Source: Sphagnum compactum (lineage: Eukaryota). Taken from it: DNA of 64,000 nt. The stretch spans positions 32,540,213 through 32,604,212 of the forward strand of contig OZ234493.1 in the NCBI GenBank assembly GCA_965153455.1, written 5' to 3'. Positions 1,515-51,137 of the stretch are shown one piece after another. The notes below the pieces were generated by a model. It saw nothing but the letters and a program-made list of their open reading frames with translations. It was not told the DNA's origin and made no database searches. Both the position numbers and the translations under genes were made by a program. The stretch's first letter is position 1. Each line of letters opens with the position of its first letter.

Positions 1515-4500
1515 TCATGGGGGTTGCTTACTAGATGTCATCCGAGAGGTAGGCTGGCATGCAGACAATGCATAAACAGTTTTCCCATTCCAGCCTGCCA
1601 GAAACCAGCCATTATCTTCACCAATGTCAAAACCCCTGGGAAAATGCCTCAGCAGGGCCCTGATTTTGGCTTTAGTACTTTCCGATATGGGCATCTGTGT
1701 GAACCCTGCTCGTAGACTCCGTGCCTGCCATGAAGTGTAGGGCTCAGCACGCTCAACTCTCTCCAGACCTTCACAAGCCACTATATTGAGGATGGCACGA
1801 CCATGAATCTCTTGCTCTATGATAACCCTGTGAGGATGCTCTGCTGGCAGTGAAGCAGCAAATGCTTCAAACGTTGTTGAATAGTGATCCATAGCCCCCT
1901 GAAACCGGGACATAAAGAAGGGTGCATTGTAGTTTCCATTCACCACTCCATGCACAAATATCTGTAGAAAGAAATGAAAAAATCGAAACGAAAAGAAATA
2001 AGAAAACCAGAGGCCAAGCAGGATATGCACATATTTACTGTCTCATTTGCATCACCAATGATCCAATTTCAGCACCCTTCTCATGAAATAAAGACCTCAC
2101 ACCATTCAAATCAACAAAAGAAATACAGACACTTAAATAGAAATGACAATGCACCGCACTAGACTGCATTGAAATGCTTCAGAGGGAAACATCCAATGAG
2201 ACATATTACTGACATGGGTGTGGCAATAAACAACTCTCCCATTAGTCATGCATTCTCATGACATAACAAGACAATGCATGCAAAGAATGAAACAGTACCT
2301 TTGGATTCATGCTTTGAATCCTCCTCAGAAACAGATTTCGAGGGCTTGCTGCCGTTACATATTCATCAAACAAATGGTGAAGTCTGTAAATACAGTTGAC
2401 TGCAAGTACTTCATCTCTGCGCAAGAAAAGGTGTGCTGGGGTGATTGCCTCCCATTTCTCAGCAATGGCATGGAAGTCAAAGGCCACTCCAAGTTGCCGA
2501 GCCACACGAGCGAGCATGCAACCGGTTTCCTGAATTCTTTCAGTGGGTCTGAATCCAGGTTTTGGCCAATAAACGCCTGAAACCAAAAAAAGAGGACAGA
2601 GGTCACAAATTCCACAGCTATGGCCTCACCAAAAGCTTGAAGGAAGCAAAGTTTTAAAGGCACATCATTTTCTCCACATCAATTTATCCTTGTTAGACCC
2701 ATTATGAACTTAGTTCCTGAAAGCCACAGATTGCCTGAGGGTTTCTATGAATGAAGAAACACAGCTTTGGTATGTCTGCTGCAACTGAGCTTTCATTCAA
2801 CCCAGGATGGAGAGGACAATGCCATTGAAAAATACCTGTTATCCGAAGGTGAGGTGGCCCTCCAGGAAGCTGAGAAAGATGGTAAATAAGAGATGGCCAT
2901 TGCATTCCATAGAGGATACCATAGTCAACTATGTGGACTCGTTTTGCATCACCAAAGGCTTGCAGAATAGCCATATTGGAGAACAAGTAAGACATTTTGA
3001 GGAGGGGGCAATGATCAAAAAAGTTGAGAAAGGCCTTCGATACTTCAGGTGCTGAGGGATGGTTGTGGTTCACAGCTGTGTACAGCTGTCCACCTGTTCC
3101 TGTCATTCTTGCGACCTGGCATCCATTTATCACAGAACTCAGTAACTTTCACCACCTGAGCAATCTGGCCTTCAGCTTTCATGTCTCTTATAAAAAGATG
3201 TCTAGCAATACCTTTAAGCAGTGATCCCAAGAAAATAGTTGAGAATCAAAACTGTAATCTTCAAACAAAAGACTGAATCAGGGACTCATATGACACATAA
3301 TTTTTGCAAGCATCACTATGACAAATATTTCAACTATCTTCAACCCATACATTCACTTTACATGAATGTATCTTATTTCCAGGTTCATTGTAGAAGCTGC
3401 ATACTGTTCTCAACAGCAGCTAATTGAGTAGCAAAATAATGAGGGCCAGTGAGTAAACTGACCAGAGCTTCCAGAAAATAGTGGGTCATGCGTTGTTCTG
3501 CATTTCCAATTGCTGATGAGTGCTGGCGAAGCTCTGCAATCAGCTTGTTAGCTTGTGAGATGTCATTTGCTTCAATCACCTGTGCACACCTGAAGTAAAA
3601 TGCAACAAGCCTCACTTGATTAGGAAAACTCATGAACTGTGAAGGTTACAAATTAGAAGCAGACAACTATGTGTGCCAGGTCTGCCAAAGGAATTAAGCT
3701 ACATGTACTAAAAAACAGTGCATACAGTTGTTCTAGAATCAGAGTCAGCTGCATCCTGGTATATCATTGTTCTTGGACATTACAATTATCATGGAGATTG
3801 CTAAAGGGACAGCTCAAGTAGGATGAACTATTACCTGACAGGGTCATTGCCATGTACTGAAGAACAAGCAGATTCTCTGAGAGCAACAACACACCAGCCT
3901 TGACTAATTGTGCTTTGTTCTTCACATGGGTGTAAATTTTCTACTGCTGCTACTGGATAACTTCCACTACCTTGTGGACCAACCCACAGGAATATAAGCT
4001 GAGATGTCTCTGGATCTGTTGTATGAAGTCGTCCTTCACACGAAACACAAGTGTAGCTCTATGCTTAGGAGAACCCTAAAGCTGATATGTACCTTAATGG
4101 ATGTGAAATGTGTACACGTTGTTTCTTAGCCAAAGATTCTCTTCCGAGACACTGGCCCAGTGAACTGTCCTTCCCCATAGAAGAAGAGATCCCTCCTTGC
4201 TCAAGAAGGTTGCTAAGAAGGTCAGCAATGAAGAAATACTAAAAATAGGCAAGATCATTCCAGAAGAGGTGTGTCCGTTTCTCCACAAGTTACCTGCAAT
4301 TGCATGAGTGAAGGGAATCACAAACTTCCATTTTCATCTATAAGGGGAGTATAGGGGTGTGGGGAAAACAGGGGAGGAACAGAATAATTTACCTGAACAG
4401 AAGATGATGCAGATCATCTTGAAGTATGGGATGCCCATTTGTAATCCACAGGGAGCTGGTTGGCTTTGAGACATGGTGGCTGTTGCCACCTCCATCTGGA

Positions 4501-5627
4501 ATGTGTGAATGGTGAAGGGCATCTTCTGAGCATGCAGTAAGAGACTCAGAATGGAAGCTGCACCGAGACATGCTGCTCTGAGCCCCTAGTGCTGCAGCTG
4601 CCTCAGGGGCGTGCATCTCTGTTCGACTAGGTGCTCCCAAACCTCTGTTTCCAGGATCCAAGTCTAGAAATGGGTCACCAGCTTCATCATTTGAGAAGCT
4701 GCTTCTTGAGCCATTTTTGAGTCCATCTAAGATGTCAGCTACTACGGGACCACCAAGAACGTCATTCAGCCAATCGTCTGAGTATAGATCCTTCTCAAGG
4801 GTTTCACTGTCAATCTGAGAAGCGTCGTCACCAGCTATCAGATCCCCCAGCTCTTGCGCCATAGCTTGGTATGCACTACTCTCCAGAAACATACACTTAT
4901 TGGACTCCGGTTCCTCCTCCACGAAGCTGTTCACATACTCGTGGAAAGTGTTGGCTTCTCCTTCCGTCATGAGAAACTCCACACCGTCGAAATCTGCCAA
5001 GTTAGACGGACTTGAACCCGCCTCTCCTTGACTAGGCGCAGTTCCTTTCTCATCGGGACTAGGGTATGCATCCCGCAAAGAAGCGAGACTAGTACTATTT
5101 TTCGAAAAGAAGTGAGAGGCGAGGTCAGCAGGTGCTGCCGGCGCCAGATGCGCCAATGAATTGGAGTTGTGCACAACACGAGTGGTGGCAGAGAGTGGTG
5201 GTCGATGAAGAAGGGGACTAGGAGGAGTTGTTACACACTGTGTTCTACTAACAACGCTCTGCAGCCTGTCATGAGGGAAGAGGAACGGACATGATGACCT
5301 CAGAGCATCGTCGTTGAAGCCGACCTCGACCTCCTTCGGCTTCGGATCTTCACCCTCTTGGAAGACAGAAAAGAGCATAGGCTTCTTCTTCTGAGGGAGG
5401 CGCTCGGCAAGCTCCGGAAAGATGGAAGAGAGCGATTCTAAAGCAGACTGCTGCTGCTCCTGCTGCTGGAGGCGGGGGATGCAGCTATTTGTCAAATGGC
5501 TGCTGCTAACAGAGCGCTTCTTCGCCTTGGGCATCTGTGTGTGAAGCCATGCCTGCTGAAGCTGCGCGGCAAGGGAAGACACCTCACCTCTACTTCCTCC
5601 TGATCTCGCATGCTTCATTCCTGCCAT
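1515..5627 (-). CDS. GRAS family transcription factor, LISCL/SCL9-SCL14-like clade, 5 coding exons, ~788 aa
   Basis: Exons 5627-4393, 3589-3463, 3115-2836, 2576-2299, 1961-1515; all introns GT-AG and in phase (2367 nt). Motifs: LHHLLFRCAQVI (LHR I), RVHIVDYGILYGMQWPSLI (VHIID), GGPPHLRITG, PGFRPTERIQETG, NGNYNAPFFMSRF (PFYRE), NIVACEGLERVER, GWNG...LSAC (SAW region). The N-terminal EYVNSFVEEE...KCMF...AYQAMAQEL resembles the LISCL acidic motif. Confidence 0.93.
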
Positions 5628-6770
5628 GTACTTTGTCTATTATCTCGTCTCTACTCCAATGCTGCTCAGACCGTCTTCTGTCTTGTCAGACAACTCCATC
5701 TGCATCCCCCTCCCCTCCTTCTCTGCTCTTTCATTGCTGCATTCATACGATCTGCTTCTGGTCCTCTCGTGTTCAGCACCTCCTCTATACCGTCTTCTGT
5801 CTTGTCACACAACTCCTTCTGCAGCCCCTCCTCCTCTCCTTCTCTGCTTCGGGATTGCTGCATTCATAAGTCCGTCTGCTTCTGGTCCCCTCCTCGTGTT
5901 CCTGACTCTCTCCGTCTCTGAAATCTACTTGAAAGCTACCTGGAAACACTCGTTAAACACAATTCGCAAATTTCGATTCATCGTTTTGTCCAGAATTCTC
6001 TCACCGCCTGCATCATCCACATGCTCCTGTTGAAGCGTTCTCGCAAAAACGGAACCCCTAGGCAACGCCCCTAGGCAGAAGCGACAGTAGGACGCAGACG
6101 CGTGAAGCGCAACATCGACATCAATTCGCCTTGCAGGCACCTCGGGTTTCTTCTTCTTCTTCTTCTTCTTCTTCCTCGCGCTCCTGCTGCTGCTGCTGCT
6201 CCTCGCTCGACGTACAGGGTTCGTAAGCTCCAGTTATGTGACGTAGGTGAGTGTAGGAATCAACACAAACAATAGTCCATAGGTTGCATGGAAATTCTAT
6301 TTCTAAAATTGGCGGCCACAAATATATACGGCACAAATGGAAAGAATTCATTGTGAAGAAAAATAATACAGCAAACCCCTCTTTACACCACCATGTGCTC
6401 AAAGTCTCAATTGATGAAGTTCCTTTGGGGCCCATGGTAACACCACCTAACAAAATTGTCTAACTCTGACACAAATAGCTTGGTGCCTACCAACCCCAAC
6501 TCCTATCAAACTTCTTGAGAAGTTTCTTTCTTCTTCTCTTGAGAAGTTTCCTTTCCACCCAAGGAGTTTGTTGGGCCCTGATCCCACATGGGATAAGGTC
6601 CTCCCATTGGTTTTTGGGTTGTTGGAATTGTACACAAGAAATTGCAGTTTCAGACTGGTGGAAGGAGTGGAACTCGATTCCTGATGATCGGAGGGTTCAC
6701 ATGAGGGAAGATTTTTTTAAATATGTTTTGTGTACATGTATGTGTTCACAAAGGGTTGCATTAAAAGTGA

Positions 6771-42480: not shown

Positions 42481-43537
42481 TTCTTTCTAAGAGTGGAAGA
42501 ATATGTGAATGAGACATATCCTAGCATTGGATTGACTTTTTTTTGCATGTGAGATGATAATTTAATATATTATTTTCTATTATTGACTTGAATTTTTTTT
42601 TAAAATTTATTTTCTCATTAGTAATGAATATTGGTTTATGTGTTTGATGTTTTAAATAATGTGAAAGATTCAATTTTTAAAAAAGGAATTAATGAAATTG
42701 AAAATTGCTAGACATGAAGTGCCCTTTGCAAGATGTGCTTTGTGCTTTGATTTTGTTTGAGAAAATAAATTCAAGTTTAATCTTGCTTTTGTTGGTTCAT
42801 AGTCATTGATTTTTATAAAACTTGTCATTTTTAGATTTTGCCCATCATAAAGACAAAGTTGAAATTGAACCAAACCATGAAAAGATCAATAGACAAAACA
42901 TTGCCCATCAAGAGACAAGTTGAGATTGAATCAACCCATGAAAAGACCAATAGACAAAATATTGCCCATCAAGAAACAAGTGGGACCCTTTGTCAAAAAC
43001 AACATAGGTGGTGACCATGCAAAGAGCCTTAAATACAAAGTTGCAAGGTGAGTATGAGAGCAATAGTTTGAGGTATTTGTCCAATGTGCTTGAGGTTGGG
43101 TGGTGGAACCATGCCTTTGTAATGTTGTGAATTTTCCATGGCTTGAGCAACAACACACATATATATACAATTGGTTTTGAGTTTCACTTTGTGCTTCCAG
43201 TGTGTGCATCTCTTTATCCAACTTTGCTTGACTTGTGTAGGAATCATTTTGTTGGAAAGCTCTTGTTCAGAAAGGGTGTGAGTGAAGAAGCCACATAAAA
43301 CTGGACCCCTATATAGGCCTTTTGTCCAAGGGGAACTGTACTGAACAAAGTTGGACTCCATTTCAACCTTTATTTATTGGTGAAATTTTGCCAAAAGTGG
43401 AACTAAAATTTAAAGCCAAAAAGAAGAAGAAGAAGTGATTTTGGAGGTTTTCAATCACCAAAAGTAAGGCGGGGAAAATTAGTAAAAATCGCTAGATTTC
43501 TATATTTGGTTTTTAGTGTGTAGCCAAAAGTATATAT

Positions 43538-43852
43538 CCTATCCCCTCTTTCAGTGGTATCCGCAAAGTAAAGACATTTTAATAATCCTCAGTATGAAAT
43601 GCTGATACTCAGCATTTATAGTAGTTGTACAGTTAGGAGCAGTGAAAAATATATGTAGCAGCAATGGAGGCGCTCAGGAAAAAGGAAAGGCAGGATGAAA
43701 CTCAGTTTACCACCAGAATTCGATGGTTTTTTTTAGTTTCATCCCGCGTTGAATGCTAATGTACTTTTTGGCAAGTTTGTTTTGAATCGCACGCTGTGTA
43801 TGACCAAACTCAGGGTTCTGGTGCTGTGTTTTTCTTACTTTACGGATAACTG
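43538..43852 (+). mobile_element. MITE-like dispersed repeat (same family as 23665-23880 and 53966-54140)
   Basis: Direct sequence homology to the two other copies; imperfect TIRs. Confidence 0.65.
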
Positions 43853-44101
43853 TATCATATGGTTGTCAGATGTTCAAAGATTGTGTTTTTCTTGCTTCCA
43901 ATCAGCAGTGTTAGTTTTGGCAGGTCTCTTGATTCCTTATGCTACCATCACCCTCTATACTTCTTCTTGTCCCAACCAACAATTATGAATTAAATATTGA
44001 ATCACATTGTTGCCCCATTATCTATAGTAAAGGAACAATGAAGCTTCCCCTGAAGCCGTGCGAATGAAGCTTCCCCTAAATCCGTCCGGCCCTAAATATA
44101 G

Positions 44102-44432
44102 CGAGAGCGTGGCTTTCTCATGTCCGTCATCCGTCCCGTCATCCAACCGGACGGACGGACATGTAGCCACCGACAGTAGCTAAGTATATCGAGGGCGTGG
44201 CTTTCCCATGTCCGTCATCCGTCCCGTCATCCAACCGGACGGACGGACATGTAGCCACCGACAGTAGCTAAGTATACCGAGGGCGTGGCTTTTCCATGTC
44301 CGTCATCCAACCGGACGGACGGACATGTAGCCACCGATAGTAGCTAAGTATACCGAGGGCGTGGCTTTCCCATGTCCGTCATCCGTCCCGTCATCTAACC
44401 GGACGGATGGACATGTAGCCACCGACAGTAGC
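44102..44432 (+). repeat. Subterminal tandem array (4 units, periods 88/88/76 bp), each unit a hairpin
   Basis: Units start at 44102, 44190, 44278, 44354. Internal inverted repeat GTGGCT..CATGTCCGTC / GACGGACATGTAGCCAC. A further partial unit lies at ~48996-49071. Confidence 0.9.
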
Positions 44433-44493
44433 TACGGACTGGACGGACATTTCCTCCGTCCGTCCGACCCGTCCATCCATCCGTCCCGTCATA

Positions 44494-45619
44494 CAGGGAA
44501 GATGTTGAGGAAGCAGAACAAAGGCAGAGAGGCGTTGTGGAAGCAACTGCTTATGAGCTTGAGGAGGTAACATCAAAGCTGTTGGCAACAAAGGAAACTG
44601 AAGAGAGGGCAACAGGGGCCATGACAACTGTAGAGCTTGAAACATTGAAGGCAGAGTTTTCTGCTGTCAAGGAAGCTCAAGAGAAAGCCGGTGAAGCTGT
44701 GGTTGCAGTGAAGAAAGAATTGGAAGAACTCGAAGCGGAGATAGCTGTCACAAAGGAATCTGAGATGAAATTGAAAGGTGCTGTTGGGTTCTACAGATTG
44801 AAATTGCGAGGATCGAGGATAGACCTTGAGGATGCAACAAAAACTGCAGAAAAGGTACTCAGTTCAATCAATTGAGTTCTGTAATATTTGTCATTGTCTT
44901 TTTGAGGCTGATGTTAATTGTTATGCTGCTGATTTTGTAACAAAACCCAAAGAGGACAAGAGATTAAAAACTGATTTTCAAGTGTTGGAAGGCAAGGTCA
45001 TATGCAATGTAGTTAGAGGAGTCAAATGCAAAAGTGAAGAAGGCAATAGAGCAGGAGCAAAGGATGTCTGTATCTCTGGCATCCCTGAAGGCAGAGCTGA
45101 AAAACACCATGACAGAGCTTGCAGCTGTGAAGGAGGAGTATGAGGTGACTGTTGCTGATGTTACTGCAGAGATGGAGTTGGAGTTCTCCAAAGCTAAGTC
45201 TCTTTTAGAAGCTGGCATACAGGCAGAGAGCAAAGCAAAGGAGTCCATATCTGGCTTAAATGATGCCTTGCATCAGGTCAGTTGAGAGGCTTTTTCCTTC
45301 TCTAAGGTCTGATGCCAGTGATGGGGTAAGAGGCTGTTCACTTTTACATATTCAAACAGGTACAGCAGTACCCAAGTCTTCAGGTATAAATAGCCGATCT
45401 GAGAATAGAAGATGGGGTGGGGGGGGTGTGTGATGACAGGTGACAATGGAAGCAGATGAGGAGAAGGCAGTGGCATTGAAGGGAAGAAAAGAAGCAGCTG
45501 CAGCGAAACATGAATTGGAGGAAGTCCAGGCACACACAGCTATGTTACAAAGTCAACTGAAAGCAGCTCTCATGGAAGTGGAGGCAGTTAAAGCATCTGA
45601 AGCTCAGGTAATCTCACAG
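44494..45619 (+). pseudogene. Captured fragment of a WEB family (WEB1/PMI2, DUF827) coiled-coil gene, three exons with introns
   Basis: Exon pieces ~44494-44854, 45013-45276, 45440-45619 with GT-AG introns. LEESNAKVKKA..SLKAEL and LNDALHQVTMEADEEKA...MLQSQLKAALMEVEAVKASEAQVISQ match the WEB C-terminal LQQAAxEADEAK...RLxAAxKEIEAAKASE pattern. No start or stop exon. Confidence 0.75.
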
Positions 45620-46412
45620 GTAAACTTCTGTTCTGCACACTACTGTTATCCTTTTTCTTCAGCAATAGGGAGTCAAAAGTTGACACTGATTATGAGCTTT
45701 GTTTGGGACACATTTTCAGGCCAAATTCCCAACAGAAATTTCACGATTTTGCCTTGCCCTGACTCCGGACAGACAGTAGCTACTATTAGCGAGGACGTCA
45801 AGTCGAAGGGTGGGACACGTGTCGCCGTGCACGCGGGTGCGGGATGGCCTCTCAACCGCCTTCGCGAGCTCCCGCACATCACATCTCATTAGCAGTTGAT
45901 CTTAGGCTTTCTAATCTCCAACGAAGTGATTATGCGATGCGATGTGATGTGATGCGATCGATCTGCCATGTCGCAGTGCGGATGAGAATCAAGGAACCCA
46001 ATGATCTGCCTGCCTGCCTGTTGTCTGCCGGCCAAGAATTTTTTTAAAAAAATTTCAGGCCACCTTCTCCCATCCCTCCTTGACGGACGGATTTCACGCT
46101 CTCGCATCCACACGGCCGCTCTCCGTCATTTTCTGTTTTTCGGAATTTGGTCTACGTTCGATCCGTCCGCGCTGCCTTCTGAAGTGAAGCAAAGCGCGGA
46201 GAAGGGGGTTGGGGTCTCGCCGCCCTGCTGCTGCTGATGTTATTATTCAATTAATATAATCATCAAGGACCTGGGGTGATATTTGATGGCTGTGTGCTAT
46301 GTCACAATTGTATTTGGACGCATGCACAAGTCAGAGATTGGCACATCTTCCTGACCCAAAGTTGTGTGCATGCTTGAAACTGATTAGCAGGTGTGTGGTT
46401 TTGATGATGCAA

Positions 46413-46514
46413 ACATGGCATAAGATGTTCACCATTAATGCAGGTCCAGGCTTTAGAATGTTGTGGAGCACCATCAAAGGTTTCTTGGATCCAGTTTCAA
46501 TTTAAAAGATTAGT
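46413..46514 (+). pseudogene. Captured single exon of a SEC14/SFH phosphatidylinositol transfer (CRAL-TRIO) gene
   Basis: [33 protein letters not shown] matches the SFH motif TLxRMFIINAGxGFRMLWxTVKSFLDPKTxxKIH. Ends at a GTATGT donor; the acceptor reads TGCAA (AG lost); in-frame TAA. Confidence 0.85.
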
Positions 46515-46759
46515 GTATGTATGAGTACAGCAGTTGCAAAATTTTCTGGCCAGGTAAAATCTTCTACTTTCCTTAATGCAAATTTTGTTTTTTTATTATT
46601 AGTACCTCTGCAATGTACTATGTGGATAGTTAGGCACTGTCTGGTGCAAAGCATCTCAAGGCTGGAATCCAACTGTTTTGAGCAAGTTTCATCTCATAAG
46701 TCTACATTGCTGCCTTTGAAGAACCATATGAAGAGGTCCTAGAGTCTGGCATTTTATTT

Positions 46760-47104
46760 AACCTCCATAAGATCTAAGAAGTGGACAATCATTTCAATGC
46801 TGATCTCTGAAAGAACACCCATAAGCAGCATGGTGAGGAGGCCGATCGGCACACCCAAAATGCGCATGGTGGCCGGAAGTGCCATAATCCCTGCCCCAAT
46901 GACAGTGGTTGCCAGATTGAACACTGAACTTCCAACACTGGCGCCTGTAGTATCCGGCAGTTGTTCAAGCCTCTCCTGTTTAACCAGTCTCTCTTCATCA
47001 TCTGTGCCTGTTAAATGAGGGCTTTGATGGAGCAGAGGAAGCTCATCAATTGGCACTTTGTGCATATTTTCAGAAATTTCAATCAAAAAGACACCTGCTG
47101 CCAT
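46760..47104 (-). pseudogene. Captured 5' fragment of an AVT6-like amino-acid transporter (Aa_trans) gene
   Basis: GASVGSSVFNLATTVIGAGIMALPATMRILGVPIG...GVLSEISIEMI is the AVT6/SNAT-like TM1-TM2 motif. Truncated after ~115 codons at the 39-bp repeat. Confidence 0.88.
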
Positions 47105-47293
47105 GAGATTTCTTTGTCAGATTACTGCATCTGTCAGAAAGTAGGCTATGCAATTATCCTCATCCAGAACCAGCAGATTCACTCACAAAGAAATGGAACC
47201 ATATGAAGAGGTCCTAGAGTCTGGCATTTTATTTGGGCATTGAGTCTAAAATAATGGTGCCTGGAACTGATTTGGGAGGGATGGCAGGTGTAG

Positions 47294-47503
47294 GAACTTG
47301 GTGGCATTGGAGCACCAACATTTCAAGTTCTTGATCCTGAAGGCAAATCTGTTGCCATTTTATGGGGCCAAGATCGGCTGAACATTGTTGCTGATCTTCT
47401 TTGTGGCTGGCGCCCTAGGCTCGGTTGCAGATCACTGGGTCCACATGCTTTCACAACTTCTAAACTCTTCTCTAAGTCAAAACTTGAAAAGGCATGGGTG
47501 TAG
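47294..47503 (+). pseudogene. Captured 3' fragment of a DsbA-like / 2-hydroxychromene-2-carboxylate isomerase / GST-kappa family gene
   Basis: Not in the ORF track (no start codon). ELGGIGAPTFQVLDPEGKSVAILWGQDRLNIVADLLCGW...* matches the family C-terminal GxFGxPTFxV...FWGQDRL motif. Confidence 0.7.
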
Positions 47504-48550
47504 CAAAAGAGTAGGCGCGCTCTTGAAGGGAATGGAGCAGCAGTTGTGGTTTGGTGGATCTCACAGCCAGCCAGGTGAAGAGAGATGGAAGGAGTGGTGG
47601 TGGCTGTGCTTCTTCTTCTTCTCTCGGATCCGAGTGCTTGGAGAAATCCAGGTTGATCCTGTTGTGTTTTTGCAGATACCCATCTCTTGCAATCCACGGA
47701 TCCCATCGCCACACCTGGATTTCGGATCAACCACACCTCAAGCAAGTGTATGACACTGCAATCAACCAGAAGAAGGAGCTTGCAGCATACAAGATCCAAC
47801 ATGCTGAGGAAGGTCAAAACGTGAAAACAACTGAACTTGCAGAACAGGATGAGACAAACAGAATCCCTGCATCTGAGTCAGTGGAGCAATTGGGGTAAGA
47901 GTGAAAATACATTCACATATTGATCAATCACATATCAGTCCATTTCTTTCTCAATGTATCTTGGACCTATAGAAGCAAACGAGCTGTTTTAGTGGTAGAG
48001 CAAAGCTGTAACTCTGTGCAAAAAGGAAGGGAACCACATTAAGTGTCTACTGGATCCCGATTTATCTGTATTTGTTCATCAAGTCTATAATGTTAAAGTA
48101 TGATTGTTGCATTGCATTGGGGTTGTGCATGCTTTGCATTGTTACTTTATGACTCTGAGGGCTGCCCAACTTTTGTGATTCAGAAGTGATTCAAATCAGA
48201 TGACATGACATACCTTACACATCTAAGGTGAAAGTGAAGATTGTAGTGTTTCCATTTCTGGGGGAAAAGAGAGAGAACAAACTGTAGAATTTTGAAGCAT
48301 GAATTTGAGAAGTTGCATCTCACAACATTGAAAGACTATATACTTGAGAGAATATTTTCTGCAATCACTGCACAGGATTAACCCTTGCAAAGCAAACTAC
48401 TGGAGAAACGCAAACCCATTTCTACATTCAAATCTTCAAATACAAATTCCAGGAGCTCATGAATCTGCACCACTAATCCAAGAAGCTCTTAGTCAGATCA
48501 TTGGTCCGAACATGCCCATCTGCCAAGTTGTAACATCTGAAATCCATAAC

Positions 48551-48661
48551 CTAAACAGGCAGCCATGAAAACAGTAAGAATGCCCTCAGAGTTCAGAAAG
48601 GCAAGATTTAGTGAACTCGCAAGTATGAATAAATTTTCTGCCAGATTGAAAGACACCAAGC
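48551..48661 (-). pseudogene. Possible captured exon of an unidentified (hydrophobic) protein
   Basis: 111-nt open segment between CTTCTTTTAG| and |GTTATG: (G)LVSFNLAENLFILASSLNLAFLNSEGILTVFMAACL(G). Family not recognised. Confidence 0.3.
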
Positions 48662-49436
48662 CTAAAAGAAGCCTCTCCTGCTACCCAACACAAGATAGTG
48701 GTGGCTTGAACTCTCTGAACACAATTATTTGGTTTTGTAAAATTTCATACCCTGTTACACATTCCAAAAGTGGCGGTTCTTGCCCCCTAATCGCCTGACT
48801 TTACCAATAACCTGTGGTTGATTTCAATTTTGTGAGGTAAGTGGACTTGCGAGTCATCCACAAGAGGACTTTAGCCACATTTGGTTACAGGTCAGAGAGA
48901 AAAGTATAAAACTTTTGGAACCCCTTCTAAGCACTCGGCTAACCATACACACACCTGTGCATTATGCACGGGGCTCAAACACGTCGGCCCTAAATCATCC
49001 GTCTCGTCATTTCCCGTCATCGAATCAGACGGACGGACATGTAGCCACGGACAATAGCTAAGTATACCGAGGACGTCAAGTCAAAGGGTGAGACACGTGT
49101 CCGCGTGCACGCGGGTGCGAGATGGCCTCTCAACCGCCATCCCATCAGCCGTCTATTTAAGCCGGACAAGGATGGATGTCTATTTAAGCCGGATGGGGTG
49201 GGTTAGGACCGGCAAAGACCTAGCAGTTTTAGGTGCATGTTTGATTTATTTTAAACACACACCTGTGCATTAGGCACGGGGCACAAACTTGCCCGGCCCC
49301 AAGGGGGGGCACCCCCAAGATTTACTATACAGAGGACGAGATGTTTTTCTTTTCATTTTCTTTTTCGTTCTCTGTTTTCGGTGTTTCTTTTTGTTTATAA
49401 TAATAATAATAATAATATAAAAAAATGAAAATTTAT

Positions 49437-49473
<37 letters not shown>

Positions 49474-49519
49474 CGTCAAATACACACACCTATGCATTAT
49501 GCACGGGGCTCAAACTAGT

Positions 49520-49698
49520 TCTATATAGTAAAGGACGTCGGGATGAAATGAAGCTTTCCGTTGGGATGAAATGAAGCTTTCCTTCGAGATGAAATGAAGC
49601 TTTCCATCCATCCATCCATCCGTCATCCATCCCATCATTCATCCAAACAGAGCAAATTCTATATAGTAAAGGGCGTCGTGGTCGTTTGTTAGGACTAG
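49520..49698 (+). mobile_element. Short Helitron 5'-terminus-derived pieces abutting the large element
   Basis: TCTATATAGTAAAGG at 49520 and 49658; 3x GATGAAATGAAGCTTTCC, similar to ATGAAGCTTCCCC at 44038-44076; ends CTAG|T at 49695-49699. Confidence 0.6.
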
Positions 49699-50254
49699 TA
49701 TACTCTAAGGTAAATAGTATTGAACTTTTTTGCCAAAACTTTTTTAAAAAGGGCACATATTCTTTGATAGAATTCAACTTAGGCATTGTGGTGAGCCACA
49801 AAGGAAATAAAAGTAGTCCAATGAAGTAGCTTTATAGGTAATAGGTTTGAAAATGCATTTGCATATATTTGTCACGTTTCAATTGGCTATGCTAGTGAGG
49901 AAACATGGTAGATGAAAATATTACACCTTCGCCATACATGTGTAATATCCGGTCATTGTGAGTTTTGTTTAGGTCCATTCCACACAACAATAGTTCAAGA
50001 GCTTTTTAAAAACTTTGAACTTGATGAATAGTCAACATGAGATCATGCACTTGTGACTAATAAGGTCACATTTTTTATTTTTAAAAAAAAATTAAACTCT
50101 AGATTATCTAGGTCAAGATTTTTAAAAACCTAGGTTAATTGGTAATCAGTGTGTTGGTGTGACAACAAAATTGATAACAGATGAGTCTAAAGATTTTTGG
50201 ATTTTTTTTTTTAAACTTTTTTTTTGGGTTAGTCATATCTTATGTGGTAATAAC

Positions 50255-51137
50255 TAGTGTTGGGCGAATGTCAAATTTTTGGGATATCCGTCAAATAAGG
50301 ATATCCATTTTTCTTTTATTTGCTGGATAAGGATATTGTATTTTTTATTTTAAAAAATTTTAGACCCGAATATCAGTGTTTCTGGATATCTATCATTTAC
50401 TTATTAGTCAGATATTAGTAGATTTGAATATCAATTTTTTTAAATAAAAAATCTACCAATTATGTTGGGTGCCAAATTATTTTTTGGGGCGAAAAATCTT
50501 CCAAAGACAACATCTTTTTTTAAAAAGGGAATCTTTTGTTATAAACGTTTTTTTTCTTAAAATTTTTTGCAAAAAAATCATTAATTAATTTAAAAAGAAA
50601 ATATAGCTTCAATAATAACTATTATTGACTACAACTTTGAAGAGACCTCTGAAGATGTGTTTCTAGAATAGTCTAAAATTGTTTTAAGGATTTTCACCAC
50701 CCTAGCTGCATCAAGAAAATGAAAAATAAAATAAAATAAATAGACAGATATTACTAACCTTAATATTTAGCCGTGGATGTGATATTTAGGTCAAATTTCA
50801 ACATTTCAAAATCTGGCATAGTCTTTTGAATATCAAAAATATTGGATATCATGATGGGTAATATTCAACACCCCATATATTTAGATACTCCTAACTTTGA
50901 TATGTAGCCTTGGATATGATATTTAGGTCAAATATCAACATCTTTATATCTTGCATAACTTTCAAATATCAAACATATCGAATATCATGTCATGATCGAT
51001 GATGATGATGATGATGATGATATTCGACACTCCAGATATCAGACTGAATCTCCATTCATATTCATCAAATGTCATTTTTGATATTCCAAGTCCTATGAAT
51101 ATCCAAAATTAAAAATCCAGATGTCTGCCCAACACTG
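50255..51137. mobile_element. hAT-like MITE / non-autonomous TIR element
   Basis: TIRs TAGTGTTGGGC / GCCCAACACTG; near-identical flanks TAATAAC / TAGTAAC; many internal GATATC motifs. Confidence 0.6.

Follow-up and report, generated by a model that had tools for sequence, protein, structure and literature searches.

A probable Helitron composite in Sphagnum compactum carrying a mosaic of host DNA pieces

A 64,000-nucleotide stretch of the Sphagnum compactum genome (GenBank assembly GCA_965153455.1, contig OZ234493.1, positions 32,540,213 to 32,604,212 of the forward strand; hereafter the window, numbered from its first letter) contains, at 44018–49698, a block that is in all likelihood a non-autonomous composite of the canonical Helitron type. 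It resembles Helitron-like element 1 (HLE1), carries a mosaic of at least six pieces of host DNA and appears to have been amplified recently. A preliminary description, made from the letters of the window, had proposed a gene-capturing Helitron-like element holding fragments of four or more unrelated host genes; its account of the contents is borne out, and its interpretation is supported by the evidence assembled here. That evidence comes from the window itself, from four public sequencing runs mapped on 43000–50500, from one metagenome scan and from protein searches. Three of the runs are of DNA, one from the window's own species (organism A, run X1) and two from related species (organism B, run X9, and organism C, run X14), and the fourth (X22) is of polyA RNA from organism A. 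The block combines a 3' hairpin followed by CTAG, an insertion site between A and T without duplication, a lack of inverted repeats and a terminus shared with elements encoding the Helitron Rep/helicase (RepHel), traits of canonical Helitrons, HLE1 as defined in the HELIANO paper (PMC11417382).

The borders of the block are set by an empty site in both relatives. The inserted DNA, about 5.7 kb long, lies between a host A at 44017 and a host T at 49699, and no target-site duplication is visible at the empty site in the contigs of either species. In organism B, a 1149 bp contig (X9 record 16) covers 43826–44017 and 49699–50500, with record positions 954 and 955 adjacent across the insertion point. 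In organism C, a collinear contig of 1244 bp (X14 record 9) covers 43765–44018 and 49728–50081, and the 29 diverged letters between these flanks equal the length of 49699–49727. Both contigs have the depth of single-copy sequence; the joint that they define is ambiguous by one letter (T), and T|A is possible instead of A|T. On the filled allele, a contig of organism A (X1 record 7) covers 49635–50193 with 0 differences, spanning the last internal junction and the 3' junction with host DNA. The preliminary description had looked to an orthologous empty A|T site free of duplication, and such a site is what the two related species hold. It had also placed the element at 44021–49518: the Helitron nature of the termini stands, while the empty sites of both species move the left edge 3 nt further left and the right edge 180 bp further. 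A repeat search within 43500–50500 returned 0 pairs of inverted repeats.

The block starts with TTATCTATAG, in which TTA precedes the TC at 44021 that had been taken as the beginning. Its 5' terminus (TTATCTATAGTAAAGG, 44018–44033, plus strand) is fixed by the break of the empty-site contigs at 44017/44018 and aligns without gaps, as a 16-mer, with six other 5' ends. All seven ends, three from the window and four from metagenome contigs, begin with TT or TA, and an A precedes the 16-mer in five of the seven copies, the register being assumed for those from the metagenome. The opening letters are TTATC in the inserted block, TTC in the other two window ends and TTAC, TTAA or TAAC in the metagenome copies; the TC sits 1–3 bases in, at bases 4–5 in the inserted block. 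In reviews, the start of canonical Helitrons is given as T(C/T). The 5' motif TCTATATAGTAAAGG, with at most 2 mismatches, occurs three times in the window (44019, 49520 and 49658) against 0.21 expected, and at least three occurrences arose in 0 of 100 shuffles. The 3' motif, with at most 3 mismatches, likewise occurs three times (48965, 49273 and 49500), against 0.01 expected. The hairpin of the family has an 8 bp stem and a 3 nt loop and lies 11 nt upstream of the end.

The 3' part of the block is a succession of such ends, all on the plus strand. An internal relic 3' end at 48945–48983, recognised by the 3' motif and repeat D4, has an intact hairpin (z −2.44) and terminates in CACG instead of CTAG; a second relic at 49253–49291, recognised by the motif and by repeats, also keeps its hairpin (z −2.71) and terminates in CTTG. 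The family 3' end proper, with CTAG, lies at 49480–49518, as indicated by the motif and by comparison with the metagenome, and its hairpin stem is weakened by a G>A change (z −0.63). This CTAG abuts, tail to head, a second 5' end that belongs to another subfamily (CTAG|TTCTATATAG). The second 5' end, starting with TTCTATATAGTAAAGG, extends over 49519–49656, is recognised by the 5' motif and repeats D5/D7, contains three 23 bp repeats, is similar to metagenome loci L013 and L001 and has no 3' end. A third 5' end (49657–49698), again recognised by the 5' motif, runs after 25 nt into a CTAG without hairpin, and this CTAG at 49698, separated by two more Helitron 5' ends from that at 49518, is the right border seen in X9 record 16, X14 record 9 and X1 record 7. 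The hairpin-CTAG|T end formerly assigned to 49518 was correct as to the CTAG and the family hairpin; the hairpin is weakened in this copy, and the position is not the border of the block.

Between these termini lie the captured pieces, of which the WEB-family fragment (44498–45737, plus strand) is identified by Pfam, protein searches and in silico splicing. It retains three GT-AG introns; its exons occupy 44498–44854, 45013–45276 and 45440–45619, followed by the first 18 nt of a fourth exon (45720–45737). Exons 2 and 3 match adjoining positions of the Pfam WEMBL profile (302–388 and 389–442; E 1e-3 and 4e-4, both under the gathering score), and exon 2, taken over its full length, has 97% identity with P0014, a WEMBL protein of S. 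compactum with 434 aa. Splicing in silico at the GT-AG sites yields 273 codons with 0 stops, and the product is 98% identical to residues 81–233 of P0014 and 64% identical to residues 535–810 of a 1018 aa paralogue (P0015); P0014 has 200 further residues that are absent from the window. Exon 1, compared with longer proteins, gave no match at E 0.001 among 1847 candidates. The fragment thus comes from the interior of a larger gene and still has its introns, and capture therefore took place at the DNA level. The preliminary description had argued for this against retrotransposition, and both that argument and its reading of the piece as three WEB/DUF827 exons with introns hold, with the 18 nt of the fourth exon as an addition. 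A retrocopy, that is, a processed pseudogene with introns absent and a poly(A) tract, is ruled out by the same three introns.

The SEC14/SFH fragment (46277–46542, plus strand) consists of one exon with intron flanks, as had been described, and is supported by Pfam, the PDB and a contig of organism C. Its coding part spans about 46405–46505, with an in-frame TAA present; the Pfam match to CRAL_TRIO has E 0.0015, under the cut-off, and the match to the SFH5 structure 7y10 in the PDB has E 1.2e-6. A separate observation concerns metagenome locus L010, whose positions 990–1055 comprise 66 nt that are 97% identical to window 46522–46587, where the SEC14 exon passes into its intron. Included are 9 nt missing from the window but present in the donor contigs of both organism B and organism C, so that a Helitron in another moss sample has a small stretch of the SEC14 piece in common with the window.

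The amino acid transporter fragment lies in antisense (46760–47195, minus strand) and comprises the N-terminal, first coding exon with upstream sequence, as indicated by Pfam and a donor contig. It matches Aa_trans with E 7.2e-10, over the cut-off, and corresponds to residues ~44–144 of transporters of ~500 aa; the AVT6-like piece reported earlier is in this sense confirmed. A 39 bp direct repeat (D6, 100% identity; 46721–46759 and 47196–47234, plus strand) brackets the inverted piece, flanking it exactly and without mismatch. It looks as if the transporter piece was inserted into a segment already captured, with duplication of the receiving sequence, and the repeat points to a copy-and-repair or template-switch event.

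Downstream, the last coding exon of a double-DsbA (PF01323) protein occupies 47285–47485 (plus strand), as judged from protein searches and RNA reads. It corresponds to the final 67 residues of two Sphagnum PF01323 proteins (97% identity in a database search, 94% by tblastn) and finishes exactly at the donor C-terminus at 47485, the position from which RNA reads continue into sequence unlike the window; the C-terminus formerly called DsbA/HCCA-isomerase-like is accordingly recovered. Entries from Sphagnum troendelagicum and Sphagnum compactum are among the 97% matches of the DsbA and WEB pieces. The DsbA-like piece itself has no match in Pfam, the PDB or NCBIfam. Two further pieces are delimited by contigs. 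Piece X (45936–46236) is covered by X14 record 12 at a depth of 27.9 and shows bins of 2200–2400 in X1 against a unique depth of ~29. Segment Y, 1157 bp long (47563–48719), is covered by one contig in each DNA run (X1 record 6, X9 record 22 and X14 record 15, the last being 2119 bp long and single-copy). The exon-like stretches noted earlier at 47745–47898 and 48551–48661 fall inside this one captured segment, and the open reading frames (ORFs) of 47563–48719 have no family match in Pfam or NCBIfam, one of them having none in the protein atlas either.

The captured pieces are embedded in Helitron sequence that is itself repetitive. Next to the 5' terminus, four CCGTCC-rich subterminal tandem repeats with a spacing of 88/76 bp (repeat family D1/D2) occupy 44048–44434 on the plus strand. 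Internal Helitron sequence already present in the 5' part (D2, D3) returns at 49012–49141 (plus strand), according to the repeat search, with a fifth D2 copy at 49012–49076. A backbone segment at 45769–45863 (plus strand; D3), repeated with 86% identity at 49047–49141, has high depth and is covered by antisense RNA reads that continue into other family members. Between segment Y and the first relic end, 48722–48944 (plus strand) derives from a repeat of very high copy number, to whose family 43538–43855 also belongs, and contig joints connect 43715/43720 to 48722–48777 in all three DNA runs. No further copies of the element were found in the 64-kb window, and Rfam gave nothing credible on 43000–50500, its two matches lying far under the gathering scores.

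Amplification and origin of the cargo were gauged from contig depth relative to the unique flank, which is a rough guide and no true copy number. In organism A (flank 28–30), the WEB piece reaches 407–488, SEC14 476, the transporter 474 and Y 478, or about 14–17 copies, and the DsbA-like piece 825, or about 28. Piece X, with its bins at ~80-fold unique depth, falls outside the 407–488 group in this species and is single-copy in organism C. The values in organism B (flank 28–31) are graded, from WEB 140 through X 173, transporter 240, Y 253 and SEC14 323 to DsbA 436, corresponding to about 5 to 16 copies. In organism C (flank 44–49), depths of 28–50 are found on six separate contigs that run past the pieces, which corresponds to one copy, with more for DsbA (234–264). 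Among these contigs are one of 8748 bp that carries the SEC14 piece at single-copy depth (record 13) and one that extends 1817 nt past 46760 in the transporter gene (record 14). The single-copy contigs of organism C that extend past the pieces are the donor loci, and the existence of donors outside the element, which the preliminary description had left to be sought, is attested both by them and by Sphagnum proteins that likewise extend beyond what was captured. The bins at the termini stand at hundreds-fold unique depth in organisms A and B and are far lower at the 5' end in organism C.

The equal depth of four pieces (WEB, SEC14, transporter and Y) in organism A fits a mosaic that was amplified as a unit. 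Compared with the multi-copy contigs of that species, the window copy differs at 27 of 2901 letters, with 0 of 828 differing in the unique flank, which suggests a recent burst. The graded depths in organism B, where DsbA is the most abundant piece and WEB the rarest, and the multi-copy state of the DsbA piece in organism C suggest that capture would have been stepwise, with DsbA first and WEB last.

The element belongs to a wider family. In the metagenome contigs, the pattern of its 3' end was found at 22 loci, representing 15 distinct insertion sites by eye; T follows in 22 of 22, and the ends read CTAG (17), CTAT (3) or CTAA (2). The same 3' end thus recurs at 15 sites with different flanks, in agreement with the expectation that the termini are common to other copies. 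Three of these loci (L016, L019 and L020) carry ORFs for Helitron_like_N (E 6e-54 and 2e-26) and PIF1 (E 6e-51 to 2e-33) on the same strand, upstream of the terminus: 180–400 nt upstream of the same 3' terminus in L019 and L020 and ~1.1 kb upstream of a diverged copy in L016. A Pif1_2B domain, also on the same strand and upstream, occurs in L006 and L017, which represent one site, and seven other ORFs of the metagenome loci have no Pfam match. Candidates for the autonomous RepHel partner that had been called for, sharing the 3' terminus, are thus present in moss-metagenome contigs. In the window, no Rep/helicase was recognised by eye among 17 ORFs of at least 130 aa, and Pfam applied to six of them, outside the element, returned GRAS only.

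In two metagenome loci, a single 3' end is preceded by a pair of 5' ends (L001:1961–5100 and L002:468–2917), and composite or tandem arrangements are seemingly common in this Helitron family.

The history proposed for the block begins with host pieces copied as DNA from unlinked loci, in both orientations, and separated from one another by stretches of Helitron backbone. These pieces are a single exon of SEC14, several WEB exons together with introns, the inverted first coding exon of the transporter, the DsbA-like last exon, X and Y. The mosaic would then have been amplified as a unit to the ~14–17 copies of the window's species, and rolling-circle insertion between A and T, without duplication, would have placed the present copy after the split of this species from its two relatives. 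Mobilisation was presumably effected in trans by RepHel-encoding elements with the same 3' terminus. The 3' part may have grown by repeated failure to stop, of which the two relic ends, the CTAG with its weakened hairpin and the hairpin-less CTAG 180 bp on would be the traces. Such behaviour is described for Helraiser, whose 3' hairpin acts as a terminator and whose bypass yields de novo 3' ends without palindrome as well as precise head-to-tail junctions (PMC4778049). The chances that the block moved as one unit by bypass of an end are about evenly balanced.

The parallel with Helraiser and HelibatN of vesper bats extends to the relic ends, the weakened hairpin, the CTAG|TT junction and the hairpin-less last CTAG of the window, and bypass in the bat element also carries flanking DNA along (PMC4778049). 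The bat element, however, was tested in human cells (PMC4778049), whereas the steps in the window are deduced from one locus; moreover, the head-to-tail partner in the window is another subfamily, so the arrangement is not a simple concatemer.

Several points weigh against a single gene-capturing Helitron composite amplified as a unit. The element starts with TT, whereas in the HELIANO paper HLE1 is defined by a TC start (PMC11417382). The one line of evidence for co-amplification as a unit is equal depth, no listed contig spanning any junction between cargo pieces or the 5' host junction. The RepHel loci come from moss-metagenome contigs and not from this genome, only their last 40–60 nt are common with the window, and 5' ends of RepHel elements were not found in those contigs. 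Apart from the 66 nt in L010, none of the window's cargo recurs in the metagenome loci, the WEB, DsbA and transporter pieces included. End bypass, for its part, does not explain the acquisition of the gene pieces, because no relic 3' end lies between them. Finally, the tail at 49519–49698 could instead have been built up by insertions that followed one another at one A|T site.

This last point leads to the possibility that several Helitrons inserted independently at one spot, short 3' pieces arriving first and the cargo element later entering the A|T of a resident 5' end. At 49518|49519 the letters read CTAG|TT, and the block follows a host A, so that the large element would have exactly that A on its left and the opening T of the following 5' end on its right, in keeping with the A|T target rule; in addition, the two 5' regions are of different subfamilies, and L001 and L002 also show paired 5' ends. 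Against this, the first insertion would have been a fragment of 42 bp or 180 bp without hairpin or proper 3' end, unlikely to transpose alone, and no intermediate state is seen in either relative. Successive insertion is on this evidence rather unlikely, though it deserves to be kept in mind. A misjoining of repeats and gene pieces during assembly would account for the mosaic in a different manner, and it is true that the listed short-read contigs cross neither the internal junctions nor the 5' junction with host DNA and that contigs break in this repeat-rich region. Such an artefact is nevertheless highly improbable: four of the six pieces have nearly equal raised depth in organism A (407–488) and raised depth in organism B, unlike single-copy genes; X1 record 7 runs without a single difference through the last internal junction and on into host DNA at the 3' side; a public protein with 30 member sequences (P0009) fuses the DsbA piece to Helitron-internal sequence also found in L010; and the borders of the block coincide with Helitron termini and a clean empty site.

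It is scarcely credible that the cargo was captured by a Pack-MULE, a CACTA element or a segmental duplication, with the Helitron ends as mere bystanders. CACTA is the most abundant classified repeat in Sphagnum genomes (PMC9946827), and a direct repeat such as the 39 bp on either side of the transporter piece is not typical of Helitrons; yet 43500–50500 has no inverted repeats, there is no target duplication, and the limits of the absent block coincide exactly with Helitron termini. The element itself does not fit the Pack-MULE or CACTA class, neither terminal inverted repeats nor a target-site duplication being present. Helitron-like element 2 (Helentron/Helitron2) does not fit either, given the lack of inverted repeats and a site of A|T (or T|A), not T-T.

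The canonical Helitron composite also shows a bias between strands in its substitutions. Among 40 of the 391 differing places, those that were listed, 31 (within 44500–48720) are positions where the window copy disagrees with the contigs of every one of the three DNA runs. The window has T against C at 21 of these 31 and A against G at 6 (p 0.0008 given the C and G content), and the 21 C>T changes, on the strand carrying 5'-TT...CTAG-3', fall in CG (3), CHG (10) and CHH (8) contexts. The excess could be due to strand-biased decay, to deamination of a single-stranded intermediate or to consensus errors at methylated C. It is tempting to imagine a family active now in Sphagnum, with cargo built piecewise and a copy bearing the deamination footprint of a single-stranded transposition intermediate, although we regard this as quite improbable. 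If true, the bias would be direct evidence, from within a genome, that rolling-circle transposition is accompanied by strand-specific deamination.

Gene capture by Helitrons is textbook knowledge for maize, bats and some insects and is well established in plants. Non-autonomous maize Helitrons with fragments of several unlinked genes were reportedly described by Morgante et al. in 2005. Like the element of the window, the maize Helitrons are non-autonomous, hold exon-intron pieces of unlinked genes in both orientations, were amplified after capture, sit between A and T without duplication and end in a hairpin and CTAG. They differ in that the host of the window element is a peat moss, its start is TT and not TC, the copy number of its mosaic is modest (tens) and chimeric transcripts are documented in maize. 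The rice family Mothra is another non-autonomous plant Helitron family, whose consensus includes tandem repeats together with a fragment captured from a gene (PMC4683698). It has one such fragment, an ORF with additional copies downstream, as against at least six pieces in the window (PMC4683698).

Within the genus, HelenSM92 of Sphagnum magellanicum is a rolling-circle element with a captured domain (GIY-YIG), assigned to Helitron-like element 2 (PMC11417382). It has short terminal inverted repeats and T-T insertion, whereas the family of the window has no such repeats, a hairpin with CTAG and A-T insertion (PMC11417382). No description of Helitron gene-fragment capture in Sphagnum or other mosses was found in the literature, as far as titles and the opening of abstracts indicate. 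The word Helitron is absent from the main text of the Sphagnum genome paper (PMC9946827), which names CACTA and unclassified repeats as the most abundant. The present locus is a well-bounded case: its site is known both filled and empty, donor loci are available, copy number increases across three related species and there are candidate autonomous partners, so that in a keystone peatland genus the order and the rate of capture can be tested directly.

PolyA RNA reads of organism A (X22) cover the pieces, each in the sense orientation of the piece's own gene. However, 70% of these reads continue into sequence unlike the window, with loose ends at the borders of the pieces (e.g., 47485), and they are mostly best read as transcripts of donor genes or sister copies; a chimeric read-through transcript of the window copy has no support in these reads. 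Other reads, opposite to the WEB strand, cover the backbone repeat D3 (45761–46011 and 49024–49290) and continue in full agreement into sequence resembling L010 at ~930–960, which indicates that organism A transcribes another member of the Helitron family.

Copies of the DsbA fragment have also entered public protein sets as "hypothetical proteins". One of them, P0009 (128 aa), continues from the DsbA fragment into sequence inside the Helitron of L010:2011–2094 (86% over 28 aa), and another (P0003, 170 aa) reads through the intron-exon border of the fragment. Sphagnum gene counts and family expansions may accordingly be inflated by cargo copies annotated as genes.

Outside the block, the very high-copy repeat at 43502–43855 has a summed contig depth of at least 90,000, against ~30–45 for unique sequence, in all three species; it stops ~160 bp before the insertion site, and no terminal inverted repeats were found for it. 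At the far end of the window, a GRAS-domain gene is located at 1515–5636 on the minus strand. A long N-terminal ORF without family match precedes two ORFs in which Pfam recognises GRAS (E 1e-26 and 4e-35), and the latter lie ~650 bp apart.

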